Part shown: piece after piece, positions 2,309-47,752 of the stretch
How the letters are laid out: every line of letters starts with the position of its first letter
Numbering within the stretch: the stretch's first letter is position 1
Assembly: GCA_045638545.1 (NCBI GenBank)
Contig: JAZUBL010000055.1
Coordinates: 880-64,879, forward strand
Length of the DNA stretch: 64,000 nucleotides
Origin: Acutalibacteraceae bacterium
Lineage (GTDB): Bacteria; Bacillota; Clostridia; Oscillospirales; Acutalibacteraceae
Reading direction: 5' to 3'
Made by a program: the position numbers and the translations under genes
Notes under the pieces: generated by a model
Told to the model about the DNA's origin: nothing
Database searches by the model: none
Seen by the model: the letters and a program-made list of their open reading frames with translations, nothing else

Positions 2309-3736
2309 ATGTATAATCCAAAATCTAAAATCGCAACTGAATTTATCGATCATGATGAGATCCTGGAATCTCTGAAATATGCAGAAGAAAACAAGAGCAA
2401 CCGTGAACTGATCGAATCTCTGCTGGACAGAGCGGAAGACTGCAGAGGCCTTACTCATAGAGAAGCTGCTGTTCTGCTGGAGTGCACAGAGCCTGACCTG
2501 AACCAGAGAATTGAAGAACTGGCAAAGAGAATCAAGCAAAAGTTCTATGGCAACCGTATCGTTATGTTTGCGCCGCTTTACCTCTCCAACTACTGCGTAA
2601 ACGGCTGCACATACTGCCCATACCATTTTAAAAACAAGAATATCTGCCGTAAGAAGCTGACACAGGAAGAAATCGTTAAGGAAGTTATTGCACTGCAGGA
2701 TATGGGTCATAAGCGTCTGGCTCTGGAAGCTGGTGAAGATCCGGTTAACAACCCAATCGAGTACATCCTGGAGAGCATCAAAACAATTTACAGCATTAAG
2801 CACAAGAACGGTGCGATCCGCCGCGTAAACGTAAATATCGCAGCAACAACAGTTGAAAACTATCGCAAGCTCCACGAGGCTGGCATCGGTACATATATCC
2901 TGTTCCAGGAAACATACCATAAGGAATCTTATGAGCAGCTCCATCCAACAGGTCCAAAGCACAACTATGCTTACCACACAGAAGCAATGGACCGTGCAAT
3001 GGAAGGCGGCATCGATGACGTAGGTATCGGCGTTCTGTTTGGCCTCGACAAGTACCGTTATGATTTCGTTGGTATGCTGATGCACGCAGAGCACCTGGAA
3101 GCAGTATTCGGCGTTGGTCCGCACACAATCAGTGTTCCAAGAATCCGTCCTGCAAACGACATCGACGTTGCAGATTTCAATAACTCCATCTCCGACGATA
3201 TCTTTGCAAAGATCGTTGCTGTTCTCCGTATTGCAGTACCATACACAGGCATGATCGTTTCCACAAGAGAATCTCAGGCTTCCCGTGAGCGCGTTCTTGA
3301 GCTGGGCGTATCTCAGATCAGCGGCGGTTCCAAGACAAGCGTTGGCGGCTATGCAGATCCGGAAGCAGAGAAGATCGACGAGAACACAACAGAGCAGTTC
3401 GACGTTGAAGATACACGTACACTGGACGAGATCGTAAACTGGCTGCTGGGCAGAGGTTTTGTACCAAGCTTCTGCACAGCCTGCTACCGCGAAGGCAGAA
3501 CAGGTGATCGCTTCATGCAGCTGGTAAAGTCCGGCCAGATTGCAAACTGCTGCCAGCCAAATGCGATCATGACACTGAAGGAGTATCTGGAAGACTATGC
3601 ATCCCCTGATACAAAGGCAAAGGGCGAGGCTGTTATTGCAAGCGAACTGGAGACAATTCCAAATCCAAAGGTAAAGGAAAGAGCGGAGCGTTTCCTCGTT
3701 GAAATGCTGGAAGGCAAGCGTGACTTCCGCTTCTAA
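2309..3736 (+). CDS. hydG: [FeFe]-hydrogenase H-cluster radical-SAM maturase HydG
   Basis: 475 aa. Carries the radical-SAM CVNGCTYC (Cx3Cx2C) motif and a C-terminal CTAC..(about 22 aa)..C auxiliary cluster motif. ThiH/HydG-like throughout, with RBS GAAGGGAG. Confidence 0.9.
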   Translation: MYNPKSKIATEFIDHDEILESLKYAEENKSNRELIESLLDRAEDCRGLTHREAAVLLECTEPDLNQRIEELAKRIKQKFYGNRIVMFAPLYLSNYCVNGCTYCPYHFKNKNICRKKLTQEEIVKEVIALQDMGHKRLALEAGEDPVNNPIEYILESIKTIYSIKHKNGAIRRVNVNIAATTVENYRKLHEAGIGTYILFQETYHKESYEQLHPTGPKHNYAYHTEAMDRAMEGGIDDVGIGVLFGLDKYRYDFVGMLMHAEHLEAVFGVGPHTISVPRIRPANDIDVADFNNSISDDIFAKIVAVLRIAVPYTGMIVSTRESQASRERVLELGVSQISGGSKTSVGGYADPEAEKIDENTTEQFDVEDTRTLDEIVNWLLGRGFVPSFCTACYREGRTGDRFMQLVKSGQIANCCQPNAIMTLKEYLEDYASPDTKAKGEAVIASELETIPNPKVKERAERFLVEMLEGKRDFRF

Positions 3737-3755: not shown

Positions 3756-4979
3756 ATGAGCCTGACAAACACACCAAGTGCAAACCGACTGCATATTGGC
3801 ATTTACGGTAAGCGCAACAGCGGCAAATCTTCACTCATTAACGCCATTACCAGCCAGAGCATCGCGCTGGTCAGCGATGTGCCGGGTACGACAACAGACC
3901 CGGTTTACAAGGCAATGGAGATCCACGGCATCGGTCCTTGTATGCTGATTGATACTGCCGGATTTGATGATGAAGGCCACCTGGGACAGATGCGTGTGGA
4001 AAAAACAAAGGCAGCGCTGCACAAAACAGACGTTGCGCTGATGTTGTTCCCGGGCATGGATCTGGATATGGAAAAAGAATGGATCCGTGACCTGAAAAAA
4101 CAGAAAACACCAATTGTTCCAATTATCAATAAAACAGATATCCGTTCCGAAGCAGAGATTCAGGAACTGAAAACAGCCATTGAGGAACTGCTGAAAGAAC
4201 CACCAATTCTCGTCAGTGCACAGACCGGTGATGGAATTGATGATCTGAAAAAAGCAATCATCCGTGCTGTACCGGAAGATTTTGAGCAGAAGACCATTAC
4301 CGGTGCTCTTGTTTCGACCGATGACGTAGTGCTGCTGGTTATGCCGCAGGATATTCAGGCGCCGAAGGGCAGACTGATCCTGCCGCAGGTGCAGACCATC
4401 CGGGATCTGCTGGACAACAAGTGTGTTGTTGTAAGTACCACTGCAGACCAGATTGATACGGCACTGAAAGCACTGGCAAAGCCGCCGGCATTGATCATTA
4501 CCGACTCCCAGGTATTTCCGCTGGTATATGAGAAAAAGCCGGCAGAGAGCCGACTGACATCTTTTTCCCTGCTGTTTGCAGCGTATAAAGGTGATCTGCA
4601 GTCTTTTGTAGATGGCGCAGCCGCTATTGATAAGCTGACACCGCAGTCGAAAATCCTCATTGCAGAGGCCTGCACCCACGCACCGTTGGAAGAAGATATC
4701 GGCAGAGTGAAGATTCCGGCAGCACTGCGGAAACGTTACGGCGCAGAACTGCAGGTGGATATTGTCAGCGGCGCTGACTTTCCGAAGGATCTCAGTCAGT
4801 ATGATCTGGTGATTCACTGCGGAGCCTGCATGTTTAACAAAAAACACGTGATGTCCCGCATTGAACAGGCAGCTGAGCAGAAAACACCAATTACCAACTA
4901 TGGCGTAACACTGGCAAAACTGGCCGGTATTCTGGATAAAGTGGATTTGGGAACCATGGCAAAAGTAAAAAACCAGTAA
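3756..4979 (+). CDS. hydF: [FeFe]-hydrogenase maturation GTPase/scaffold HydF
   Basis: 407 aa from the ATG after GAAAGGGG. P-loop GKRNSGKSS, DTAG, NKTD, and the C-terminal CTH...HCGAC cluster motif typical of HydF. The ORF-track start (3699) overlaps hydG and was rejected. Confidence 0.85.
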   Translation: MSLTNTPSANRLHIGIYGKRNSGKSSLINAITSQSIALVSDVPGTTTDPVYKAMEIHGIGPCMLIDTAGFDDEGHLGQMRVEKTKAALHKTDVALMLFPGMDLDMEKEWIRDLKKQKTPIVPIINKTDIRSEAEIQELKTAIEELLKEPPILVSAQTGDGIDDLKKAIIRAVPEDFEQKTITGALVSTDDVVLLVMPQDIQAPKGRLILPQVQTIRDLLDNKCVVVSTTADQIDTALKALAKPPALIITDSQVFPLVYEKKPAESRLTSFSLLFAAYKGDLQSFVDGAAAIDKLTPQSKILIAEACTHAPLEEDIGRVKIPAALRKRYGAELQVDIVSGADFPKDLSQYDLVIHCGACMFNKKHVMSRIEQAAEQKTPITNYGVTLAKLAGILDKVDLGTMAKVKNQ

Positions 4980-5007
4980 AAACGCACGAAAGACGTCGCA
5001 TTTTCTC

Positions 5008-5036
5008 TTGACAAATTTGTGGAAACAGATTATCAT
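5008..5036 (+). promoter_or_regulatory. Promoter of the ilv T-box leader
   Basis: TTGACA-17 nt-TATCAT. Confidence 0.5.
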
Positions 5037-5042
5037 AAAGTA

Positions 5043-5322
5043 TACATATAATAGAAAAAATGCGATGACGGAGAACACGCATAGGTCCCTTTGGCACAGA
5101 GAACTGATGGTTGGTGGAAATCAGCGCAAAGCCCTATGTTGATCCCTCCACAGCAGGCAGCTGAACCCGGAATCTGGTAGTAAGCGGCAGCCCGTAAGCT
5201 CCACGTTACAGGGGCGAGCATTGGTTTTCGATGCGTTAAGTGCCATGGCTTAGCTGTGGAATTAGAGTGGTACCACGGAGCGTTCAGTCTTCGTCTCTGC
5301 GTTGGAGACGAAGACTTTTTTA
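5043..5322 (+). promoter_or_regulatory. T-box riboswitch leader (branched-chain amino acid class; specifier not resolved)
   Basis: Conserved T-box sequence AATTAGAGTGGTACCACGG at 5260-5279. Stem I elements are present (AGAGA bulge and GGTGGAAA distal loop, about 5097-5120). Terminator AGTCTTCGTCTC / GAGACGAAGACT plus a T-run at 5286-5322. Candidate specifier triplets in TGTTGATCC (about 5137-5145) are UUG, GUU and AUC. Confidence 0.85.
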
Positions 5323-5367
5323 TTATATTTTTATCTATTCGAATTAACAGCAAAGGAGAAATTACTT

Positions 5368-7080
5368 ATGCGTTTAACAGGTGCACAAATCATCATGGAG
5401 TGCTTGCTGGAGCAGAAGGTTGACACAGTCTTCGGCTATCCGGGCGGCGCTGTATTGAATATTTATGATGCCCTTTATGAATATCAGGATCGTATCAATC
5501 ATGTCTGCACAGCACACGAACAGGGTGCTTCTCATGCTGCAGATGGTTATGCCCGCGCAAGCGGCAAAACAGGCGTATGCATTGCAACATCTGGCCCAGG
5601 TGCAACAAACCTGGTAACCGGTATTGCAACTGCATATATGGATTCTATTCCAATGGTTGCAATTACCGGCAACGTAAACCTTGGTCTGCTGGGTCTGGAC
5701 AGTTTCCAGGAAGTAGATATCACCGGCATTACTATGCCAATTACAAAACACAACTTTATTGTTAAAAAAGTTGAGCATCTGGCAGATACTCTTCGCCAGG
5801 CATTCCGTATTGCAAATGGCGGCAGAAAGGGTCCTGTTCTTGTAGATATTCCAAAGGATATCACCGCAGCAGTATGTGAGTATACACCAAAAGATCCATC
5901 TGAGCCATTCAGCATAGATGATGCCCGCGAAATGCATCTTCCGGTCGCAAAGCCATTGCCAAGACTGAAGGAGGAGAAGCTGGAGCATGCGCTGCAGATG
6001 ATTGCAGCATGTGAGCGTCCATTCCTGTATGCAGGCGGCGGCATTATTGCATCTGATTGCAGTGAAGAGCTGGCTGCGTTTGCTGAAAAGCTGGATGCTC
6101 CGGTTGCTTGCTCTCTCATGTGCCAGGGCGGTTTTGACCAGAGCAACGACCGCTATATGGGTATGCTGGGCATGCATGGTACTATGACTTCTGCACAGGC
6201 ATTAAAAAACTGTGACCTGTTTGTGGCAGTTGGTACTCGTTTTTCTGACCGTGTTTTGTGCAATGCAAATCTTTTTGCACGCCACTGCCACGTGATTCAG
6301 ATCGACATTGACCCTGCAGAGTTTGATAAGCAGATCAGCATTTCTGAAAAGCTCAGCGGCGATGCAAAAGTAGTGCTCAAAGTGCTGCTTGAGAGAATGG
6401 AGCAGAAGTCCAATCCGGATTGGATGAGCAAGATTGCTGCATGGAAGCAGGAATATCCGCTGATGCAGGAACCAACAACGGAAGGCGGCGTAACACCGCA
6501 GATGCTGATGGAAACACTCCGCAAGCTGACAGATGACAATGATATCATCACAACAGAAGTTGGTCAGCACCAGATGTGGGCTGCACAGTTTTACGAGTAT
6601 CGCAAACCGAGAACATTCCTCAGCTCCGGCGGCCTCGGTACTATGGGTTACGGTCTTGGTGCATCCATCGGCGCAAAATTTGCCTGTCCGGACAGACGCG
6701 TGATCAACGTGGCAGGCGATGGCAGTTTCCACATGAACTGCAACGAACTTTCCACAGCAGCAAAATACAATGTGCCGATCGTGGAAGTTCTCATGAATAA
6801 CTCAGTTTTAGGTATGGTATATCAGTGGCAGAATCTGTTCTATGAAAAGCGCTACTCCAATACTGTTCTGCAGAAGCCAACCGATTACGTAAAGCTGGCA
6901 GAAGCATTTGGCATTAAAGGTTATACCATCACATGTCAGGAAGAATTAGAGCCGGTTCTTCGCGAAGCACTTTCTCAGGACGGTCCTGTTCTTGTAAACT
7001 GCCTCATCGACAAAAATATCAACGTATTGCCAATGGTTCCGGCAGGCAAGTCTCCGGAAGAGCCATTGCTGAAGATTTAG
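5368..7080 (+). CDS. ilvB: Acetolactate synthase (acetohydroxyacid synthase) large subunit
   Basis: 570 aa from the ATG 8 nt after AAAGGAGAA (MRLTGAQIIMECL..). ThDP enzyme with the GDGSF motif. The ORF-track start at 5302 lies in the T-box terminator. Confidence 0.9.
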   Translation: MRLTGAQIIMECLLEQKVDTVFGYPGGAVLNIYDALYEYQDRINHVCTAHEQGASHAADGYARASGKTGVCIATSGPGATNLVTGIATAYMDSIPMVAITGNVNLGLLGLDSFQEVDITGITMPITKHNFIVKKVEHLADTLRQAFRIANGGRKGPVLVDIPKDITAAVCEYTPKDPSEPFSIDDAREMHLPVAKPLPRLKEEKLEHALQMIAACERPFLYAGGGIIASDCSEELAAFAEKLDAPVACSLMCQGGFDQSNDRYMGMLGMHGTMTSAQALKNCDLFVAVGTRFSDRVLCNANLFARHCHVIQIDIDPAEFDKQISISEKLSGDAKVVLKVLLERMEQKSNPDWMSKIAAWKQEYPLMQEPTTEGGVTPQMLMETLRKLTDDNDIITTEVGQHQMWAAQFYEYRKPRTFLSSGGLGTMGYGLGASIGAKFACPDRRVINVAGDGSFHMNCNELSTAAKYNVPIVEVLMNNSVLGMVYQWQNLFYEKRYSNTVLQKPTDYVKLAEAFGIKGYTITCQEELEPVLREALSQDGPVLVNCLIDKNINVLPMVPAGKSPEEPLLKI

Positions 7081-7092
7081 GAGGGATATACT

Positions 7093-7590
7093 GTGACTTA
7101 TCATCACGATACTGTGGAGCGGGATTATATCGTCTCCATTCTGGCGCAGAACAACTCCGGTGTTCTGCTGCGTATTGCCGGTTTGTTCAGCCGCAGACGC
7201 TATAACATCAAGAGCATTGTTGCAGCGCAGACAAAAGACGCAGCACATTCCCAGATCCTGATCGTCGTTCATGGTGATGACCGTATTGTTCGTCAGGTAG
7301 GTAAGCAGCTGTACAAAATGGAAGAAATCGAGCAGGTAAGTGTCCTGGATGATCGCGATTCTGTTGTACGTGAACACCTTCTGCTGAAGGTTTCCAGAAC
7401 AGATGCCAACAGCGAGCAGCTGGTTTCCATTGCAAGTGTATTCCGTGCGAACATCCTGAATGTAACAGCAGAAAATATCATTGTGGAGCTGACAGGCACA
7501 CCACGTACTCTGGATACTTTTGTGGAATGCTACCGTCCGTACGAGATTATTAAAATTCTCCGTACCGGTACCATGGCTATGGAACTGTAA
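7093..7590 (+). CDS. ilvN: Acetolactate synthase small (regulatory, ACT) subunit
   Basis: 165 aa with a GTG start after GGAGGG. The sequence ILAQNNSGVLLRIAGLFSRRRYNI is typical of IlvN/IlvH. Confidence 0.85.
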   Translation: MTYHHDTVERDYIVSILAQNNSGVLLRIAGLFSRRRYNIKSIVAAQTKDAAHSQILIVVHGDDRIVRQVGKQLYKMEEIEQVSVLDDRDSVVREHLLLKVSRTDANSEQLVSIASVFRANILNVTAENIIVELTGTPRTLDTFVECYRPYEIIKILRTGTMAMEL

Positions 7591-7623
7591 TTGTTTAGTG
7601 GGCTTGAAGGAGTAATTGTTTGA

Positions 7624-8826
7624 ATGTTGACCTTAGATAAAATCTATCACGCGGCCTTTGTGCTGAAAGACGTGATTCGCAAAACTGACCTGATCAATGC
7701 GCCGGCACTGAACCCGAATGCTGATATTTATCTGAAAACAGAAAATCTGCAGATCACCGGTTCTTTTAAGCTGCGCGGTGCTTCTTACAAGATTTCTCAG
7801 CTGACAGAGGAGGAAAAGGCTGCTGGTATTGTGGCATCTTCCGCAGGCAACCATGCACAGGGTGTTGCAATGGCATCGGCAAAGTCCGGTATTCCATGCA
7901 CAATCTGTATGCCGGACGCAGCGCCAATTTCTAAAATTGAAGCAACCAAGCGCCTTGGCGCAAAGGTTGCATTGGTTCCAGGCGCATATGACGACGCTTA
8001 CAAGCATGCACTGAAACTGCAGAAGGAGAACAGCCTGACACTGATCCATCCGTTCGATGATCCTGACGTAATTGCAGGCCAGGGTACCATTGGTCTGGAG
8101 CTGCTGGATCAGCTGCCGGACATGGATGCTGTAATTGTACCAATTGGCGGCGGCGGTCTGATTTCCGGCGTTGCGTTTGCAATCAAATCTCTGAACCCGA
8201 ACATTAAAGTGTACGGTGTGCAGGCAAACGGTGCGCCTTCCATGCGCAATTCTATTGAGCATCATCAGATTGAAACACTGGAAAGCGTTTCCACCATTGC
8301 GGACGGTATTGCGGTTAAACGTCCGGGTGAGCTGACTTATGAGCTTTGTGAAAAATATGTAGATGACATCTGCACTGTAACTGACGACGAGGTTTCCACT
8401 GCAATTCTGGCGCTGATCGAGCGACAGAAGATGATTGCAGAAGGTGCCGGCGCCGTTGCTGTTGCAGCAGCAATGTTTAATAAATTTGACATCAAGGGTA
8501 AAAAAGTTGCTTGTATTGTTTCCGGCGGTAATATTGATGTTAATATCCTTTCCAGAGTGATCAGCCGCGGCCTGCTGAAGTCCGGTCGTTCTACAGAGAT
8601 TACTCTGGAGGTTATCGATAAGCCGGGCCAGCTCAGCGATGTTTCCCGCATCATTTCCGATGTAGGCGGCAACGTTGTATCTGTTCACTATGACCAGACT
8701 GGTGAGAACACTCATGTTAATGGTTGTTATCTCCGTCTGCGTCTGGAGACAAGAGACTTTGAACAAATTGATGCGATCCGGCAGGCACTGCAGGCCGGCG
8801 GTTATAAAATTGTTAGTTCCAGATAA
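7624..8826 (+). CDS. ilvA: Threonine ammonia-lyase (threonine dehydratase) with C-terminal ACT-like domain
   Basis: 400 aa with the PLP-lysine motif GSFKLRGA and a glycine loop GGGGLISG. Confidence 0.85.
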   Translation: MLTLDKIYHAAFVLKDVIRKTDLINAPALNPNADIYLKTENLQITGSFKLRGASYKISQLTEEEKAAGIVASSAGNHAQGVAMASAKSGIPCTICMPDAAPISKIEATKRLGAKVALVPGAYDDAYKHALKLQKENSLTLIHPFDDPDVIAGQGTIGLELLDQLPDMDAVIVPIGGGGLISGVAFAIKSLNPNIKVYGVQANGAPSMRNSIEHHQIETLESVSTIADGIAVKRPGELTYELCEKYVDDICTVTDDEVSTAILALIERQKMIAEGAGAVAVAAAMFNKFDIKGKKVACIVSGGNIDVNILSRVISRGLLKSGRSTEITLEVIDKPGQLSDVSRIISDVGGNVVSVHYDQTGENTHVNGCYLRLRLETRDFEQIDAIRQALQAGGYKIVSSR

Positions 8827-36227: not shown

Positions 36228-37559
36228 ATGAATCGTTTTTTTCATTCTGTTACATTAGATTACGATAAATGTGTAGGATGCACCAATTGTGTCAAGCACT
36301 GTCCAACAGAAGCTATTCGTATTCGAGAAGGCAAAGCGATTATCATACCAGAGCGCTGCATTGACTGCGGTGAATGTATCCGCGTCTGTCCGCACAGGGC
36401 AAAAAAAGCACGCTATGACTCGCTTGCAGACATGGATAAATTTGAATATAAAATTGCACTGCCGGCACCGTCCTTATATGGCCAGTTCAGCAATCTGGAC
36501 GAGATCGACCTGGTTCTGACCGGTCTGCGCGATTTGGGCTTTGATGAAGTGTACGAAGTTTCCAGAGCAGCGGAGCTTGTCTCGGAGGCTACCAGAAAAC
36601 TGATGCAGAGCGGCCATCTGCAGATTCCTGTAATCAGCTCCGCCTGTCCGGCAATCGTTCGTCTGATCCGTGTGCGTTTCCCGGATCTGTGCAGCCATGT
36701 ACTGCCTCTGAACGCGCCAATGGAAACAGCTGCCTGCCTTGCAAAAGAAGAGGTATCAGAGCGCCTGCAGATTCCAAAAGAGAAAATCGGTGCTGTATTT
36801 ATTACACCGTGCCCTGCAAAGGTGACCGACATTAAAGTACCGATCGGCACAGATCGTTCTGATGTGGATCTGGCGGTTCCGATCAGCGAAATTTTCCCGA
36901 AGCTGGCTGATCAGATGAAAAAAGTAACACAGTCAGAAAATCTGGCCAAGTCTGGTGTGATTGGCGTTGGCTGGGCATCCAGCGGCGGCGAGTCCGCAGG
37001 TTTGCTCCGTGAAAAATATCTGGCAGCAGACGGCATTGAAAACTGTATTCGTGTTCTGGAAGATCTGGAAGATGAGAAAATCCGCGGCCTGGATTTCATT
37101 GAGCTGAACGCCTGCAGCGGCGGCTGTGTTGGCGGTGTTGCCTGTGTGGAAAATGCTTACGTTGCAAAAGCAAGACTGCAGCATCTGCGCAAATATCTGC
37201 CGATTTCCAGAAACCATCTGATCAACAATATCCCATATTGCATGGAGTGGAATGAAGATCTGGAATATGCGCCTGTAATGAAATTGTCCGACGACATTTC
37301 TGAGGCAATGGCAATGATGATGGAGATTGATGACATCTGCAGTGAGCTGCCGGGCATGGACTGTGGTTCCTGTGGCGCACCATCCTGCCGTGCGCTTGCA
37401 GAAGATGTTGTACGCGGTGACGCAAAAAAGAGTGATTGTATCTTTATTCTGCGTGATGAAATTCAGCTGATGGCGGAGAAACTGGCAGAACTGAGCAGCA
37501 GCCAGTTCCCGACCGGTGCATCAAACCGCAAGAGAAAAGGTGGAGAAAATGAAAATTAA
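36228..37559 (+). CDS. [FeFe]-hydrogenase-like Fe-S protein (2x[4Fe-4S] ferredoxin N-terminus, H-domain-like core, C-terminal RnfB/CFeSP-type Fe-S domain); putative sensor
   Basis: 443 aa. N-terminal motifs CVGCTNCVKHCP and CIDCGECIRVCP. H-cluster-like motifs are SSACPA (L1), TPCPAK (L2) and ELNACSGGCVGG (L3). C-terminal CGSCGAPSC-x16-C. No PAS domain was seen. Confidence 0.75.
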   Translation: MNRFFHSVTLDYDKCVGCTNCVKHCPTEAIRIREGKAIIIPERCIDCGECIRVCPHRAKKARYDSLADMDKFEYKIALPAPSLYGQFSNLDEIDLVLTGLRDLGFDEVYEVSRAAELVSEATRKLMQSGHLQIPVISSACPAIVRLIRVRFPDLCSHVLPLNAPMETAACLAKEEVSERLQIPKEKIGAVFITPCPAKVTDIKVPIGTDRSDVDLAVPISEIFPKLADQMKKVTQSENLAKSGVIGVGWASSGGESAGLLREKYLAADGIENCIRVLEDLEDEKIRGLDFIELNACSGGCVGGVACVENAYVAKARLQHLRKYLPISRNHLINNIPYCMEWNEDLEYAPVMKLSDDISEAMAMMMEIDDICSELPGMDCGSCGAPSCRALAEDVVRGDAKKSDCIFILRDEIQLMAEKLAELSSSQFPTGASNRKRKGGENEN

Positions 37560-38948: not shown

Positions 38949-39452
38949 ATGACGGAGAGTTCTTACAACTATCGCACTCCTTCTTCGCTGTTAGTGGAGG
39001 TCGCTAAGATCGCCGCACGCTATCGTGGACAGCCGGACCAACTGAGCAAGGTTGCTTGGGAAGTAAAGAGAATCGTGCCTGTTTTGTCTTATGACGTGGC
39101 AAAAGTAATTGCCCGTGAGATGGGCATGAGCCTTTCTCAGGTCTACAACTTCGTAACCTTTTATGCAATGCTTTCTACAAAACCACATGGTAAATACACC
39201 ATTCGTATTTGCAGAAGCGCACCTTGCCATGTTAACGGTGCTGCAGAAGTAGTACATGCAATCGAAGATCAGCTGGGCATCAAAATGGGTGAGACCACAG
39301 AAGATGGCCGCTTTACTTTAGAGTACTGTCCATGTCTTGGTCTGTGCGATATCGCACCGGCTATCATGATTAATAAAAAAGTTTATGGTAATCTGACTGC
39401 AGATTCCGTTCGTGATCTTATTAAAATTTATATCCGGGGAGAGATTAAGTAA
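38949..39452 (+). CDS. NuoE-like [2Fe-2S] subunit of NAD(P)-linked [FeFe]-hydrogenase (HydC-type), operon 1
   Basis: 167 aa with the thioredoxin-like 2Fe-2S motifs CRSAPCH..CPCLGLCD. Confidence 0.85.
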   Translation: MTESSYNYRTPSSLLVEVAKIAARYRGQPDQLSKVAWEVKRIVPVLSYDVAKVIAREMGMSLSQVYNFVTFYAMLSTKPHGKYTIRICRSAPCHVNGAAEVVHAIEDQLGIKMGETTEDGRFTLEYCPCLGLCDIAPAIMINKKVYGNLTADSVRDLIKIYIRGEIK

Positions 39453-40753
39453 TGAAAGAAGTATTGATTCTGCTCCGAAACCGGGAACGCTATGAAGATG
39501 GTTCCTATAATCCATTTGATGCAAAAGAGTATATGGCTACTGAAGGCTTTGCAGGCCTGAAGCGCGCTCTTACAATGACCAGCGACTATATCATTAATGA
39601 AGTGAAAGAGTCCGGTCTCCGCGGCCGCGGTGGCGCAGGTTTCCCAACCTGGAGAAAGATGTCTTTCTGCGCTGGCGATGCTGAAGTAAAGTATGTAGTC
39701 TGCAACGCTGACGAAGGCGAACCAGGCACAAACAAAGACCGTGTTCTGCTGACAGTTGACCCATGCGCAATTTTTGAAGGCATGGCAATCGCAGCAAAGG
39801 CAATCGGTGCACAGCGTGGTTATCTGTATCTCCGTGCTGAGTACCGCTACATGGTTCCGGATCTGGAAGCTGCACTGCAGAGCTGCCGTGACAACAACTG
39901 CCTCGGCGACAACATTTTTGGCAGCGGTTTTAATTTTGATATTGAGATCCGTATGGGTAACGGCGCTTATGTTTGCGGTGAGGAAACTGCACTGTTTGAA
40001 TCCATCGAAGGTAAGCGCGGTGAGCCTCGTTTCCGTCCACCATATCCGGCAACACACGGCCTGTTCGGCAAGCCAACACTGCTGAACAACGTAGAAACAC
40101 TGGCAAACCTGGCACCGATTTTCCGTAATGGTGCAAAGTGGTATGCAAGCCATGGTACCGAAGGCAGCACAGGCACAAAGCTGTTCACTGTTTCTGGTAA
40201 TATTGCTCGCAAGGGCGTTTTCGAGCTCCCAATGGGTGCCAACCTGAAGGAACTGATCTTCGACTTCTGCGGCGGCGTAGCAGACGGCTATAATCTGCTG
40301 GGCGTTCAGACCGGCGGTGCATCCGGTGCGATCGTTAATGCTGACCAGATTGACGTAAGTCTGGATATCGACCACGTTTCTGCATCCGGCGGTCGTCTGG
40401 CTTGCGGTACTATCATGGTATATAGTGACAGAAACTGCATCGTTGACATTCTGCGCAACGATCTGGACTTCTTCCGTGAGGAATCCTGCGGTCAATGTAC
40501 ACCGTGCCGTGAAGGCACATTCGAGCTCTATCGCCTGGTAACTAAGATTTCTCAGGGTAAGGGTTCTATCGAAGATCTGAATACCATTGATGAACTGTGC
40601 GAAGTTATGCGCAACACTGCTCTGTGCGGCCTTGGCGTATCTGCAACAGTTCCTACCACAACCTGTATTCAGAATTTCCGCAAGGAATTCCTTGCACATA
40701 TTGATGGCGATTATTGCCACAATTGCAGTATCAGTGGAGGTGACGAAGAATGA
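39452..40753 (+). CDS. NuoF-like FMN/NAD(P)H subunit (HydB-type), core-only form, operon 1
   Basis: 433 aa; GLRGRGGAGFPT, ..CGQCTPCREG.. It lacks the N-terminal 2Fe-2S domain and the C-terminal 2x[4Fe-4S] domain present in the operon-2 paralog. Confidence 0.85.
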   Translation: MKEVLILLRNRERYEDGSYNPFDAKEYMATEGFAGLKRALTMTSDYIINEVKESGLRGRGGAGFPTWRKMSFCAGDAEVKYVVCNADEGEPGTNKDRVLLTVDPCAIFEGMAIAAKAIGAQRGYLYLRAEYRYMVPDLEAALQSCRDNNCLGDNIFGSGFNFDIEIRMGNGAYVCGEETALFESIEGKRGEPRFRPPYPATHGLFGKPTLLNNVETLANLAPIFRNGAKWYASHGTEGSTGTKLFTVSGNIARKGVFELPMGANLKELIFDFCGGVADGYNLLGVQTGGASGAIVNADQIDVSLDIDHVSASGGRLACGTIMVYSDRNCIVDILRNDLDFFREESCGQCTPCREGTFELYRLVTKISQGKGSIEDLNTIDELCEVMRNTALCGLGVSATVPTTTCIQNFRKEFLAHIDGDYCHNCSISGGDEE

Positions 40754-42474
40754 TTAATCTTACAATTGATGGATGTCCTGTTTCTGCACCTGCTGGAACT
40801 ACAATTCTCGAGGCTGCTCGCCAGGTACATATTAAAATCCCAACCCTCTGTTATCATGAGGACCAGGCTGTTAAAGCAAACTGCCGTATCTGCGTTGTTG
40901 AGGTAAACGGTAACCCAACACTGCAGACTGCTTGCTCCACACCAATTGCTGAGGGCATGAACGTTAAAACAGTTTCTTCCAGAATTACACGCTATCGCCG
41001 TGACATTCTGGAGCTGATTTTTGCGCGTCATCCACACGACTGCCTCTCCTGCCAGAAAAACGGCAGATGTGAGCTTCAGACTCTCGCGGCACAGCTGGGT
41101 GTACAGCGTCATAAGAACCGTTATCACCACGATGTTCGTAAGATCCCGGTAGATACCAGTTCTCCATCTATTACTCGTGATCCGGCAAAATGTATTCTTT
41201 GCACACGCTGCATCACTGCATGTAAAGAACTGCAGTCTGTTGACTGTATCGCAAAAGAAAACCGCGGTTATCATACCAACATCGTTCTGCCATATGGCCT
41301 TAAGCTGGCAGACACAGCTTGCGTAAACTGTGGCCAGTGCTATCAGGTATGTCCAACAGGCGCAATCACAATTCATGATGATTCCTGGAAAGTATATCAG
41401 GCAATGGACGAGGGCAAGGCTGTTGTTGCACAGATCGCTCCTTCCGTTCGTATCAACCTGGCAGAATGTCTGGGCGCAGAGCCTGGTACAGTATCTACAG
41501 GTCGTCTCGTAACAGCAATGAAGAGACTGGGCTTCACAAAGGTACTCGACTCCGACTTTACTGCTGACCTGACAATCATGGAAGAGGGTACAGAGCTTCT
41601 CGGCAGAATCAAGAACGGCGGCGTAATGCCAATGATCACTTCTTGCTGTCCTGCATGGATCAAGTTCTGTGAAACATACTTCCCAGATCAGCTCGACCAT
41701 CTCTCCAGCTGTAAGTCCCCACAGCAGATGTTTGGTCCACTGATCAAGACATGGTGTGCAGAGAAGATGGGTCTTGACCCTGCAAATGTTTACTCTGTAT
41801 CCGTTATGCCATGTACAGCAAAGAAGTTCGAAGCAGCTCGTGCAGAAATGAATGCAAGCGGCTATCAGGACGTTGACGTTGCTCTGACTGTTCAGGGTCT
41901 GGCAGACATGATCGTTGCTGCTGGTATCCAGTTTGATGAGCTGGAAGAAACTCCATTCGATTCTCCAACAGATACAGGCTCCGGCGCTGGTCTGATCTTC
42001 GGTGCAACAGGCGGTGTTATGGAAGCTGCCCTGCGTACAGTATATGAAGTTGTAACTGGTGAAACACTGCCAAAGCTGGAACTGGAAGAAGTTCGCGGCA
42101 TGGAAGGCATCAGAACTGCAACAATCGACCTGAAAGGCACACCTGTTCGTGTATGCGTAGCACACGGCCTGGCAAATGCTCGTAAGGTTATGGAGCAGGT
42201 AAAAGCTGGCACAGCTCCATATGATTTCATCGAAGTTATGGCTTGCCCAGGTGGCTGCATCTCCGGCGGCGGTAATGCTCCAAGAACATGGGCGAAGGTT
42301 GAAGCTCGTGCAAAGGCAATCTACGAAGCTGAGAAGGATCTCCCAGTACGTAAGTCTCACGAGAACCCGGTTATCACAAAGATTTACGAAGAATTCCTTG
42401 GCGAACCAAACAGCCATAAAGCACACGAATTACTTCACACAACTTATGTTGATCGCAGTGATTTGATTCGCTGA
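40750..42474 (+). CDS. hydA: [FeFe]-hydrogenase catalytic subunit (M3-type, HydA1)
   Basis: 574 aa. N-terminal 2Fe-2S, a His-ligated cluster region (HPHDCLSC..C) and 2x[4Fe-4S]. H-cluster motifs are canonical: TSCCPAW, MPCTAKKFE, EVMACPGGCISGGG. ATGA overlap with the previous gene. Confidence 0.9.
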   Translation: MINLTIDGCPVSAPAGTTILEAARQVHIKIPTLCYHEDQAVKANCRICVVEVNGNPTLQTACSTPIAEGMNVKTVSSRITRYRRDILELIFARHPHDCLSCQKNGRCELQTLAAQLGVQRHKNRYHHDVRKIPVDTSSPSITRDPAKCILCTRCITACKELQSVDCIAKENRGYHTNIVLPYGLKLADTACVNCGQCYQVCPTGAITIHDDSWKVYQAMDEGKAVVAQIAPSVRINLAECLGAEPGTVSTGRLVTAMKRLGFTKVLDSDFTADLTIMEEGTELLGRIKNGGVMPMITSCCPAWIKFCETYFPDQLDHLSSCKSPQQMFGPLIKTWCAEKMGLDPANVYSVSVMPCTAKKFEAARAEMNASGYQDVDVALTVQGLADMIVAAGIQFDELEETPFDSPTDTGSGAGLIFGATGGVMEAALRTVYEVVTGETLPKLELEEVRGMEGIRTATIDLKGTPVRVCVAHGLANARKVMEQVKAGTAPYDFIEVMACPGGCISGGGNAPRTWAKVEARAKAIYEAEKDLPVRKSHENPVITKIYEEFLGEPNSHKAHELLHTTYVDRSDLIR

Positions 42475-42758: not shown

Positions 42759-43256
42759 ATGCAAAAGCGAATCAGTAAAATGCCTTTTCAGGGTACAGAA
42801 GAACAGCAGCAGAAGCTTTTCGAGGCTATCGACAAGCTGAAGGATGAAAAGGGTGCAATTATGCCAATCCTTCAGGAAGCACAGAATATCTATGGTTACC
42901 TGCCAATCGAGGTTCAAACCATGGTGGCTGAGCGCACAGGCGTAGCTCTGGAAGAGATTTATGGCGTATCCACTTTCTACTCTATGTTCGCACTTACACC
43001 AAAGGGTAAGTACGACATTTCTGTATGTTTGGGTACAGCTTGCTACGTTAGAGGCGCACAGGATCTGATTGACAAGATCTCTGAGGTTCTCAACGTTCAG
43101 CCTGGTGATTGCACACCAGACGGCAAGTTCTCTCTCACAGAATGCAGATGCATTGGTGCATGCGGTCTTGCTCCGGTTCTTACCATTAACGAAGAAGTTT
43201 ATGGCAGACTGACAGCAGATGATATCCCAGGTATCCTGGCTAAGTACATGGATTAA
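42759..43256 (+). CDS. NuoE-like [2Fe-2S] subunit (HydC-type), operon 2
   Basis: 165 aa; CLGTACY..CRCIGACG. Confidence 0.85.
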   Translation: MQKRISKMPFQGTEEQQQKLFEAIDKLKDEKGAIMPILQEAQNIYGYLPIEVQTMVAERTGVALEEIYGVSTFYSMFALTPKGKYDISVCLGTACYVRGAQDLIDKISEVLNVQPGDCTPDGKFSLTECRCIGACGLAPVLTINEEVYGRLTADDIPGILAKYMD

Positions 43257-43261
43257 TCGCC

Positions 43262-43804
43262 ATGCGAGAGTTGTCACTGAATGTAATGGATGTGGCTCAG
43301 AACTCGGTTGTGGCCGGCGCTACGCTGACAACGATTCGTGTTGTGGAGCAGGGGAACCATTTACAGATTGAAATCAGGGACAATGGAAAAGGGATGACAG
43401 AGGAGCAGGTAAAAAACGTGACTGATCCGTTCTTTACCACAAGAACCACCCGCAAGGTTGGCCTTGGTGTGCCTCTGTTCAAAATGCAGGCGGAAATGAC
43501 AGGCGGCGGACTGACAATTACCTCCAAACCGGGAGAAGGCACGGATGTGGTTGCCACGTTTGATATGTCCCATGTGGATATGATTCCAATTGGTGACATG
43601 GAGTCGACGATTTTGTTATTAATTACCTGTAATCCGGACTCCGATTTTGTCTACTACCGATGTCATGACGACCGGTCATTTACGCTGGATACAAGGGAAC
43701 TCCGGACTGTGCTTGGCGAAGACGTTCCGCTGAACACACCGGATGTTGCAGAATGGATCAAAGAATTTTTACAAGAGAATTTAGATTCGATTCAGGGAGG
43801 ATAA
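43262..43804 (+). CDS. Stand-alone histidine-kinase-like (GHKL) ATPase embedded in hydrogenase operon 2
   Basis: 180 aa. N-box VAQNSVVAGA, G1 DNGKGM, G2 GLGVPL, ..GEGT.. No DHp/phosphoacceptor or sensor domain. Confidence 0.7.
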   Translation: MRELSLNVMDVAQNSVVAGATLTTIRVVEQGNHLQIEIRDNGKGMTEEQVKNVTDPFFTTRTTRKVGLGVPLFKMQAEMTGGGLTITSKPGEGTDVVATFDMSHVDMIPIGDMESTILLLITCNPDSDFVYYRCHDDRSFTLDTRELRTVLGEDVPLNTPDVAEWIKEFLQENLDSIQGG

Positions 43805-45986: not shown

Positions 45987-46006
45987 AGAAAGGAGTGTTT
46001 CAAGAA

Positions 46007-47752
46007 ATGTTTAATATCAAAATTAACGATATCGCTTATTCCGTACCGAAAGGTTCCACAATTCTTGAGGCTGCAAGATTTGCAGGCATTAACATTCCGA
46101 CCTTATGTTACCTCAAGGGCCTCAACGAAATCGGCGCATGCCGTGTTTGTGTTGTAGAGGTTAAGGGCGCTCGTTCCCTGGTTGCAGCATGTATGCACCC
46201 AGTAAACGAGGGCATGGAGATCTATACAAATACTCCAAAGGTTATCGAATCCAGAAAGATGACAATGCAGCTGCTCCTGTCTGTTCATGACAGAAAGTGC
46301 CTCTCCTGCGTAAGAAGCGGCTCCTGCGAATTCCAGCAGCTCTGCCACGATCTGGGTGTTGAAGATGAAGGCGCATTTGACGGTGCATTCCCAGAAGCAA
46401 TCTATGACGATTCTTCCGTACATATGATCCGTGACAACAGCAAGTGCGTTCTCTGCCGTCGCTGCGTAGCTGCTTGCGAAGCACAGCACACAGCAGTTAT
46501 CGGTGCTAACAACCGTGGTTTCGACACAGCTATTGGCTGCGCATTTGAGCAGACACTGGCTGATGTTGCATGTATCTCCTGTGGTCAGTGTATCGTAAAC
46601 TGCCCAACAGGCGCACTGGTTGAAAAGGACAGCACAGCAGACGTTATGGCTGCAATCGCTGATCCAGAGAAGTTCGTTGTTGTTCAGACTGCTCCTGCAA
46701 TCCGTGCAACACTGGGCGAATGCTTCGATATGCCAATCGGTACAAACGTAAAGGGCAAGATGGTTGCAGCACTGCGCCGCCTTGGCTTTGACCGTGTATT
46801 TGACACCGACTTCGGCGCTGACCTGACAATCATGGAAGAAGGCACAGAGTTCATCCACAGAGTAAAGGAAGGCGGCGTTCTGCCAATGATCACATCCTGT
46901 TCCCCAGGTTGGATCAAGTACATCGAGCACTTCTACCCAGAACTGCTTCCACACCTCTCCAGCTGTAAGTCCCCACAGTCTATGCAGGGCGCACTGACAA
47001 AGAGCTGGTACGCTGAGAAGATGGGCATCGATCCAAAGAACATCGTAAGCGTATCCATTATGCCATGTACAGCTAAGAAGTTCGAGATTCAGCGTGACGA
47101 CATGAACGGCGCTGGCGCAGATCTGATGGATAACGACTACACACTCACAACACGTGAGCTGGGCCGTCTCATCAAGAAGTGCGGTATCGACTTTGTAAAC
47201 CTGCCAGACGAAGAGTTCGATCCATGCATGGACGTAACAACAGGCGCAGCTGTTATCTTCGGTACAACAGGCGGCGTTATGGAGGCTGCTCTCCGTACAG
47301 TTGCTGATGTTCTCGCAGGCGAAGAGCTTCAGCAGATCGACTACCACGAAGTACGTGGCATGGGCGAGATCAAGGAAGCTACATATGATGTAGCAGGCAT
47401 GAAGGTTAACGTAGCAGTTGCTTCCGGCATGAACAATGCTAAGGTTATTCTTGACAAGATCAAGAACGGCGAAGCAGACTACCACTTCATCGAGATCATG
47501 GGTTGCCCAGGCGGCTGCATCAACGGCGGCGGCCAGCCAACACAGCCAGCACTTGTTCGTGGCTTCACAGACTTCCGTGAGAAGAGAGCAGAAGCACTCT
47601 ACGAGGAAGACAGAAATCTGCCACTCCGCAAGAGCCACCACAGCCCAATCGTTAAGCTGGTATACGAAGAGTACCTCGGCGAGCCAGGCAGCCACAAGGC
47701 ACACGAACTGCTGCACACAACTTATGTAGCACGTGAAAAATACAAGAAATAA
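46007..47752 (+). CDS. hydA: [FeFe]-hydrogenase catalytic subunit (M3-type, HydA2) with variant L1 motif TSCSPGW
   Basis: 581 aa from the ATG 9 nt after AAAGGAG. Same domain order as HydA1. L2 (MPCTAKKFE) and L3 (EIMGCPGGCINGGGQP) are canonical. L1 reads TSCSPGW (46892-46912). Confidence 0.9.
   Translation: MFNIKINDIAYSVPKGSTILEAARFAGINIPTLCYLKGLNEIGACRVCVVEVKGARSLVAACMHPVNEGMEIYTNTPKVIESRKMTMQLLLSVHDRKCLSCVRSGSCEFQQLCHDLGVEDEGAFDGAFPEAIYDDSSVHMIRDNSKCVLCRRCVAACEAQHTAVIGANNRGFDTAIGCAFEQTLADVACISCGQCIVNCPTGALVEKDSTADVMAAIADPEKFVVVQTAPAIRATLGECFDMPIGTNVKGKMVAALRRLGFDRVFDTDFGADLTIMEEGTEFIHRVKEGGVLPMITSCSPGWIKYIEHFYPELLPHLSSCKSPQSMQGALTKSWYAEKMGIDPKNIVSVSIMPCTAKKFEIQRDDMNGAGADLMDNDYTLTTRELGRLIKKCGIDFVNLPDEEFDPCMDVTTGAAVIFGTTGGVMEAALRTVADVLAGEELQQIDYHEVRGMGEIKEATYDVAGMKVNVAVASGMNNAKVILDKIKNGEADYHFIEIMGCPGGCINGGGQPTQPALVRGFTDFREKRAEALYEEDRNLPLRKSHHSPIVKLVYEEYLGEPGSHKAHELLHTTYVAREKYKK

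Follow-up and report, generated by a model that had tools for sequence, protein, structure and literature searches.

We find that HydA2, a [FeFe]-hydrogenase catalytic subunit encoded by an Acutalibacteraceae bacterium, has a serine in the place of one of the cysteines that bind the [4Fe-4S] cubane of the H-cluster. In the reading that we favor, with a probability of roughly 0.92, HydA2 is an ortholog of HydA1 of the Acetobacterium woodii HydABC(D) complex, carries a natural serine ligand that is kept by purifying selection, and is expected to have a normal, active H-cluster. The serine variant of HydA2 is thus an already known, widespread natural variant. Our own evidence consists of sequence, conservation, orthology, operon architecture and the presence of the maturases; the placement of the serine in the ligand site and the catalytic activity come from the literature on the A. 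woodii enzyme. We would annotate hydA2 as an intact, probably active catalytic subunit; the labels pseudogene, sensor and assembly error would not suit it.

The hydA2 Gene and Its L1 Motif

The window (the whole stretch of DNA that was analyzed, 64,000 nucleotides of contig JAZUBL010000055.1) contains the following features of hydA2:

46007..47752, + strand: hydA2, catalytic subunit of an M3-type group A [FeFe]-hydrogenase, 581 amino acids (from homolog length and Pfam/NCBIfam matches)
46892..46912, + strand: H-cluster motif L1, TSCSPGW, in which Cys302 (TGT, 46898-46900) is the intact proton-relay cysteine
46901..46903, + strand: serine codon TCC, standing where a cysteine normally ligates [4Fe-4S]H (CpI C300, A. 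woodii Ser301); the residue is Ser303 if numbered from the GTG and Ser299 if numbered from the ATG
47060..47086, + strand: H-cluster motif L2, MPCTAKKFE, canonical (consensus MPCxxKxxE)
47492..47527, + strand: H-cluster motif L3, EIMGCPGGCING, canonical (consensus ExMxCxxGCxxG)

The longest open reading frame of hydA2 has 585 codons (45995-47752) and opens at GTG 45995. The ribosome-binding site, AAGGAG at 45990-45995, extends into this GTG, and the ATG at 46007 yields a protein of 581 amino acids, as in nearly all close homologs; the ATG is therefore the likely start. The H-domain is recognized by PF02906 (Fe_hyd_lg_C; E-value 2.6e-98) and the small-subunit-like C-terminus by PF02256 (Fe_hyd_SSU; E-value 4.3e-24), and the protein scores 519 bits against TIGR02512 (cut-off 406) and 883 bits against NF040763, the NCBIfam model for the “NADH-dependent [FeFe] hydrogenase, group A6” (cut-off 765). 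A look-up of the exact sequence of the window's own HydA2 found no record.

Positions 46892-46912 read ACA TCC TGT TCC CCA GGT TGG and encode TSCSPGW, residues 300-306 of the frame counted from GTG 45995. In HMMER alignments to solved structures, which are gap-free around L1 and in which the register was counted backwards from the row ends, Ser303 is aligned with C300 of Clostridium pasteurianum CpI, Cys299 of Thermoanaerobacter kivui HydA1 and Ser301 of A. woodii HydA1, and Cys302 with the proton-relay C299 of CpI. The solved ortholog structure (Katsyv et al. 2023, PMC10021017) settles the question of register. The initial annotation had read the same codons and had placed the serine at the cubane-ligand position rather than at the proton relay; it had also described L2 and L3 of HydA2 and the TSCCPAW of the neighboring paralog HydA1 (41638-41658) as canonical, and the sequence and alignments bear all of this out.

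HydA2 departs from the textbook L1 motif TSCCPxW, with its two cysteines, in that the relay cysteine is kept and the ligand cysteine is replaced by serine. This departure does not bar HydA2 from group A. The textbook motif is too narrow, because the active A. woodii enzyme and about 22% of diverse representatives depart from it in the same way, and screens that demand both L1 cysteines will misclassify hydrogenases of the serine type.

The Serine Is Conserved among Orthologs

TSCSPGW is present in all of the 120 nearest database homologs, most of which are 70-97% identical to HydA2 (one is 62% identical), and in 80 of 80 loci retrieved from named genomes, among them Clostridium leptum DSM 753, several Ruminococcus, Lachnospiraceae, Enterocloster lavalensis and Acetivibrio ethanolgignens. 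When 40 related genomes were searched, 29 of the 30 best hits, which span 15 families of the order, had the motif, the lone exception being a 55%-identical protein with TSCCPGW. The orthologs use all six serine codons at the ligand position (TCT, TCC, TCG, TCA, AGC and AGT), which is not the pattern of a recent slip from TGY. The nearest relative is represented by four Logan assemblies from four different runs, with a 97%-identical protein at 89% nucleotide identity; three of them read TCC and one reads TCT. An amino-acid identity of 97% against a nucleotide identity of 89% points to strong purifying selection, and the serine appears to be natural in this lineage and held by such selection. 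The initial annotation had proposed an alignment of orthologous HydA sequences and had listed, as one of three options, a lineage-specific variant. TSCSP is conserved in more than 200 orthologs, TGC (Cys) is not the ortholog state, and of the three options this one is correct, the conserved serine being known from A. woodii.

One ortholog of HydA2, on the minus strand of a related genome assembled as a single contig (G023:C1:1412054-1413790), retains TSCSPGW and is interrupted by one in-frame TAA within the match. The stop codon may be a sequencing error, or the gene may be a pseudogene.

Comparison with Characterized Enzymes

The closest solved structure to HydA2 is HydA1 of A. woodii (PDB 7Q4V, 7Q4W and 8A5E), which matches over the full length with an E-value of 3.7e-218 and shares the order of domains. 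The L1 block MITSCSPGWIK is identical in the two proteins (local sequence LPMITSCSPGWIK, in a gap-free alignment). In the A. woodii structure, Ser301 takes the place of T. kivui Cys299 as a ligand of cluster A1, the cubane (Katsyv et al. 2023, PMC10021017). The A. woodii bifurcating HydABC is active, the infrared signature of its H-cluster is typical with no apparent effect of Ser301, and the catalytic activities of the serine enzyme (A. woodii) and the cysteine enzyme (T. kivui) are similar (Katsyv et al. 2023, PMC10021017). The likeness extends to the rest of the system: canonical L2 and L3, a HydB with both extra Fe-S domains, and an operon that also encodes a NuoE-like HydC along with a small 2Fe-2S protein. 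The host differs from A. woodii in belonging to an uncultured clostridial lineage of gut or rumen (its closest relatives with names are listed under Oscillospiraceae or Ruminococcaceae), and the enzyme is known here from its sequence. A further difference is that this genome has two additional HydA operons with core-only HydB subunits. A literature search for a natural serine-ligated H-cluster, later work included, found Katsyv et al. 2023 alone.

HydA1 of T. kivui (PDB 8A6T and 8BEW) and CpI (e.g., 4XDC) share the M3-type architecture and the H-domain with HydA2 (E-values of 5.8e-172 and 7e-152, respectively), and their relay cysteine and L2 and L3 ligands align with those of HydA2. In contrast to HydA2, both have the canonical TSCCP; the ligand position that holds serine in HydA2 is Cys299 of T. 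kivui and C300 of CpI.

An engineered counterpart exists in the algal enzyme CrHydA1. Its C115S variant (mature numbering; C170 of the precursor) binds little [4Fe-4S] and does not take up the [2Fe] subcluster (Kertess et al. 2017, PMC5855289). We identify C115 as the second cysteine of TSCCP by its neighbor C114 in the numbering of these authors; the position, the change from cysteine to serine and the first coordination sphere of [4Fe-4S]H are thus all as in HydA2. Kertess et al. called this outcome surprising given that serine occurs there naturally, since alignments show it at the ligand position in approximately 20% of putative hydrogenase sequences, a figure that they cite from Winkler, Esselborn and Happe (2013) (Kertess et al. 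2017, PMC5855289). The engineered algal variant is defective whereas the natural serine-type A. woodii enzyme is active, which implies that the tolerance of serine depends on the protein context and not on the position alone.

The motif TSCSPGW has also been noted in homologs of trimeric “confurcating” hydrogenases in Melainabacteria ACD20 (Di Rienzi et al. 2013, PMC3787301). The two ACD20 proteins additionally lose a cysteine of motif 3, which is replaced by isoleucine, in contrast to the complete L3 of HydA2.

Operons, Paralogs and Maturases

The hydA2 gene is the last of a five-gene operon (operon 2), and the same five-gene operon is found in near-identical relatives. The genes upstream of hydA2 are:

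42759..43256, + strand: hydC2, NuoE-like 2Fe-2S subunit, 165 amino acids (PF01257, E-value 5.6e-51)
43262..43804, + strand: GHKL/HATPase_c protein within the operon, 180 amino acids
43812..44180, + strand: small thioredoxin-like 2Fe-2S ferredoxin (HydD-like), 122 amino acids
44193..45986, + strand: hydB2, NuoF-like flavoprotein of 597 amino acids that carries a 2Fe-2S domain at its N-terminus and a 2x[4Fe-4S] domain at its C-terminus

Other hydrogenase genes and the maturases of the same genome are:

40750..42474, + strand: hydA1, a paralog whose L1 is the canonical TSCCPAW (41638-41658); its operon has three genes, one of which encodes a core-only NuoF homolog
approximately 2312-3733 and 3768-4943 of the window (G000:C55:3191-4612 and 4647-5822): hydG and hydF, adjoining, approximately 40 kb upstream of the hydrogenase operons
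another contig (G000:C38:18320-19330): hydE

HydB2 contains, by Pfam, 2Fe-2S_thioredx (residues 6-81), Complex1_51K, NADH_4Fe-4S and two Fer4 domains (543-595), and its best PDB match is HydB of A. woodii (7q4v_B; full length, E-value 6e-285). The β subunits of bifurcating and non-bifurcating NADH-dependent hydrogenases differ in the number of their [Fe-S] centers, according to Losey et al. (2020, PMC7311640). The subunit architecture, i.e., the Fe-S domains of HydB2 and its match to A. woodii HydB, supports the assignment of operon 2 as a probable bifurcating-type complex, as the initial annotation had proposed. We would predict, by analogy with the A. woodii enzyme, that the HydA2 complex oxidizes and evolves H2 and carries out flavin-based bifurcation (H2 with NAD+ and oxidized ferredoxin).

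Operon 1 (38949-42474) encodes a NuoE-like protein of 167 amino acids, a core-only NuoF of 433 amino acids and HydA1, and is without the extra Fe-S domains of HydB2. A third paralog, HydA3, lies on the minus strand of another contig (C34, 4125-5870); it has 581 amino acids, TSCSPGW with the serine codon AGT, and LSSAKSP in place of LSSCKSP. Next to it on the same strand are an open reading frame of 418 amino acids (5872-7128), the size of a core-only NuoF, and one of 164 amino acids (7143-7637), the size of NuoE. Judging the partners by size, these two and HydA3 appear to form a three-gene operon. Since Losey et al. (2020, PMC7311640) tie the number of Fe-S centers to bifurcation, operon 1 and the C34 operon may encode NADH-only enzymes. 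The H-cluster maturases are encoded in the genome, all above the curated cut-offs: HydG with 925 bits, HydF with 552 bits and HydE with 569 bits. The locus also has a sensory-type hydrogenase-like protein, encoded by a separate gene (36228-37559) with SSACP.

By analogy with the A. woodii enzyme, we expect normal assembly of the H-cluster and catalytic activity of HydA2. Ser303 would occupy the ligand site of the cubane, presumably as a serinate with an Fe-O bond, and Cys358 of L2 and two cysteines of L3 would provide the other three ligands, the di-iron site being bridged by one of the L3 cysteines. The proton relay would be Cys302, and electrons would travel by way of the F-domain clusters to HydB and HydC. 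HydA2 thus probably behaves like its A. woodii counterpart.

Alternative Explanations

We considered whether the serine could be an error of sequencing or assembly, the true codon being TGC (Cys) and TCC a single-base miscall in a metagenome-assembled genome. TCC is indeed one base away from TGC, and the genome is an 81%-complete assembly of 83 contigs. However, every close ortholog has serine, encoded by six codons of which the AGY ones are two changes away from TGY; the nearest relative has TCC or TCT in each of its four independent assemblies; and the second serine-type paralog of the same genome, on another contig, has TSCSPGW with AGT. With the serine found in more than 200 orthologs, we reject this option of the initial annotation, whose probability is practically nil. 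A serine at this site might instead mark a non-catalytic, sensory or degenerate hydrogenase-like protein, given that the loss of a cluster ligand commonly signals degeneration and that the engineered replacement of cysteine by serine disabled the algal enzyme. Such a role for HydA2 is highly improbable: its A. woodii ortholog shares the motif and is active in both directions as a bifurcating hydrogenase, HydA2 has kept L2, L3 and its relay cysteine intact, the identities to the nearest relative (97% and 89%) indicate strong purifying selection, the gene stands in a complete operon with the maturases present, and the actual sensory-type protein of the locus is the different gene with SSACP.

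The serine could also sit in the ligand position without binding iron, with water, hydroxide or another residue (Cys302 or the cysteine of LSSCKSP) as the fourth ligand. The cryo-EM structure of the A. woodii enzyme is of medium resolution and by itself is no proof of a direct Fe-O(Ser) bond; Kertess et al. (2017, PMC5855289) raise a neighboring cysteine and solvent (OH- or H2O) as substitute ligands for alanine variants, and the LSSCKSP block gives HydA2 an extra cysteine, at residue 324. On the other side, Katsyv et al. (2023, PMC10021017) model Ser301 as a ligand, Cys302 is conserved and required as the proton relay, and the presence of Cys324 is uncoupled from that of the serine (a cysteine is found there in 52 of the 91 representatives of the Cys-type and in 17 of the 22 of the Ser-type, and alanine stands there in the Ser-type HydA3). 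If the side chain were dispensable, alanine or glycine would be expected in some orthologs, whereas serine is invariant. We consider a non-binding serine quite unlikely and retain the reading of Ser303 as a natural ligand. The initial annotation had further suggested a natural O-ligated or otherwise altered H-cluster environment that tunes potential or bias. The O-ligated H-cluster matches the interpretation of the A. woodii structure, and the tuning is unsupported by published data. Nor is its view that the change matters functionally supported by Katsyv et al. (2023, PMC10021017), who report no apparent infrared effect and similar activities of serine and cysteine enzymes. Whether the oxygen ligand has any effect on the cubane is a question already raised by the A. 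woodii enzyme and not new here.

Frequency and Evolution of the Serine Type

The 150 best representatives of 50%-identity clusters include 25 with (T/S)SCSP and 90 with (T/S)SCCP. The proportion of serine (approximately 22%) agrees with the published value of approximately 20% cited above. Serine thus occupies the ligand position in about one fifth of diverse group A sequences, among them the main multimeric hydrogenase found in many Clostridia of gut and rumen.

A quick maximum-likelihood tree was built from 120 diverse H-domains. Its Ser-type sequences are clustered in one region of 26 rows, 16 of them Ser-type, which includes all three HydA paralogs of this genome. Cysteine and serine appear to have been swapped repeatedly in evolution, as parsimony requires approximately 12 changes of state on this tree, of which at least six are forced by well-supported branches. 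One could go further and regard the choice between cysteine and serine at the cubane ligand as a switch that evolution has thrown repeatedly, and not just as a neutral mark of lineage, an idea that we consider doubtful. This one genome keeps one Cys-type and two Ser-type HydA paralogs side by side. If serine changes the [4Fe-4S]H potential, the bias of catalysis, or the behavior toward oxygen or in maturation in ways unseen by infrared, such paralog pairs would be natural experiments on the redox tuning of the H-cluster.

We also looked for residues that vary together with the serine. A glycine two residues after the ligand position is present in 21 of 22 Ser-type and 33 of 91 Cys-type representatives, in raw counts uncorrected for phylogeny. 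Raw Fisher tests single out this residue (Gly305, 46907-46909) and the flanks of L3 (47495-47503), with a tendency toward EIMGC in the Ser-type and EVMAC in the Cys-type. Phylogenetically independent pairs gave only six usable contrasts, with no significant association for Gly305 or the L3 flanks. We therefore do not claim co-evolution of compensating residues, the raw signal being not significant once phylogeny is controlled with so few contrasts. A “migrated ligand,” i.e., the cysteine of LSSCKSP replacing the lost one, was rejected as well, since that cysteine is also common in the Cys-type and absent from the Ser-type HydA3.

Four representatives on long branches of the tree are altered at both L1 positions, the relay cysteine being gone and serine standing at the ligand site: P0169 and P0270 (SS), P0179 (YS) and P0190 (AS), of the types TSSSP, TSYSP and TSASP, respectively. 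They may be non-catalytic or sensory forms. Another member of the representative library, P0124, is a predicted protein of 4122 residues with seven separate matches to the H-domain of HydA2 (1948 bits, 46% identity); either a giant protein with multiple H-domains or an artefact of gene calling or assembly could explain it.
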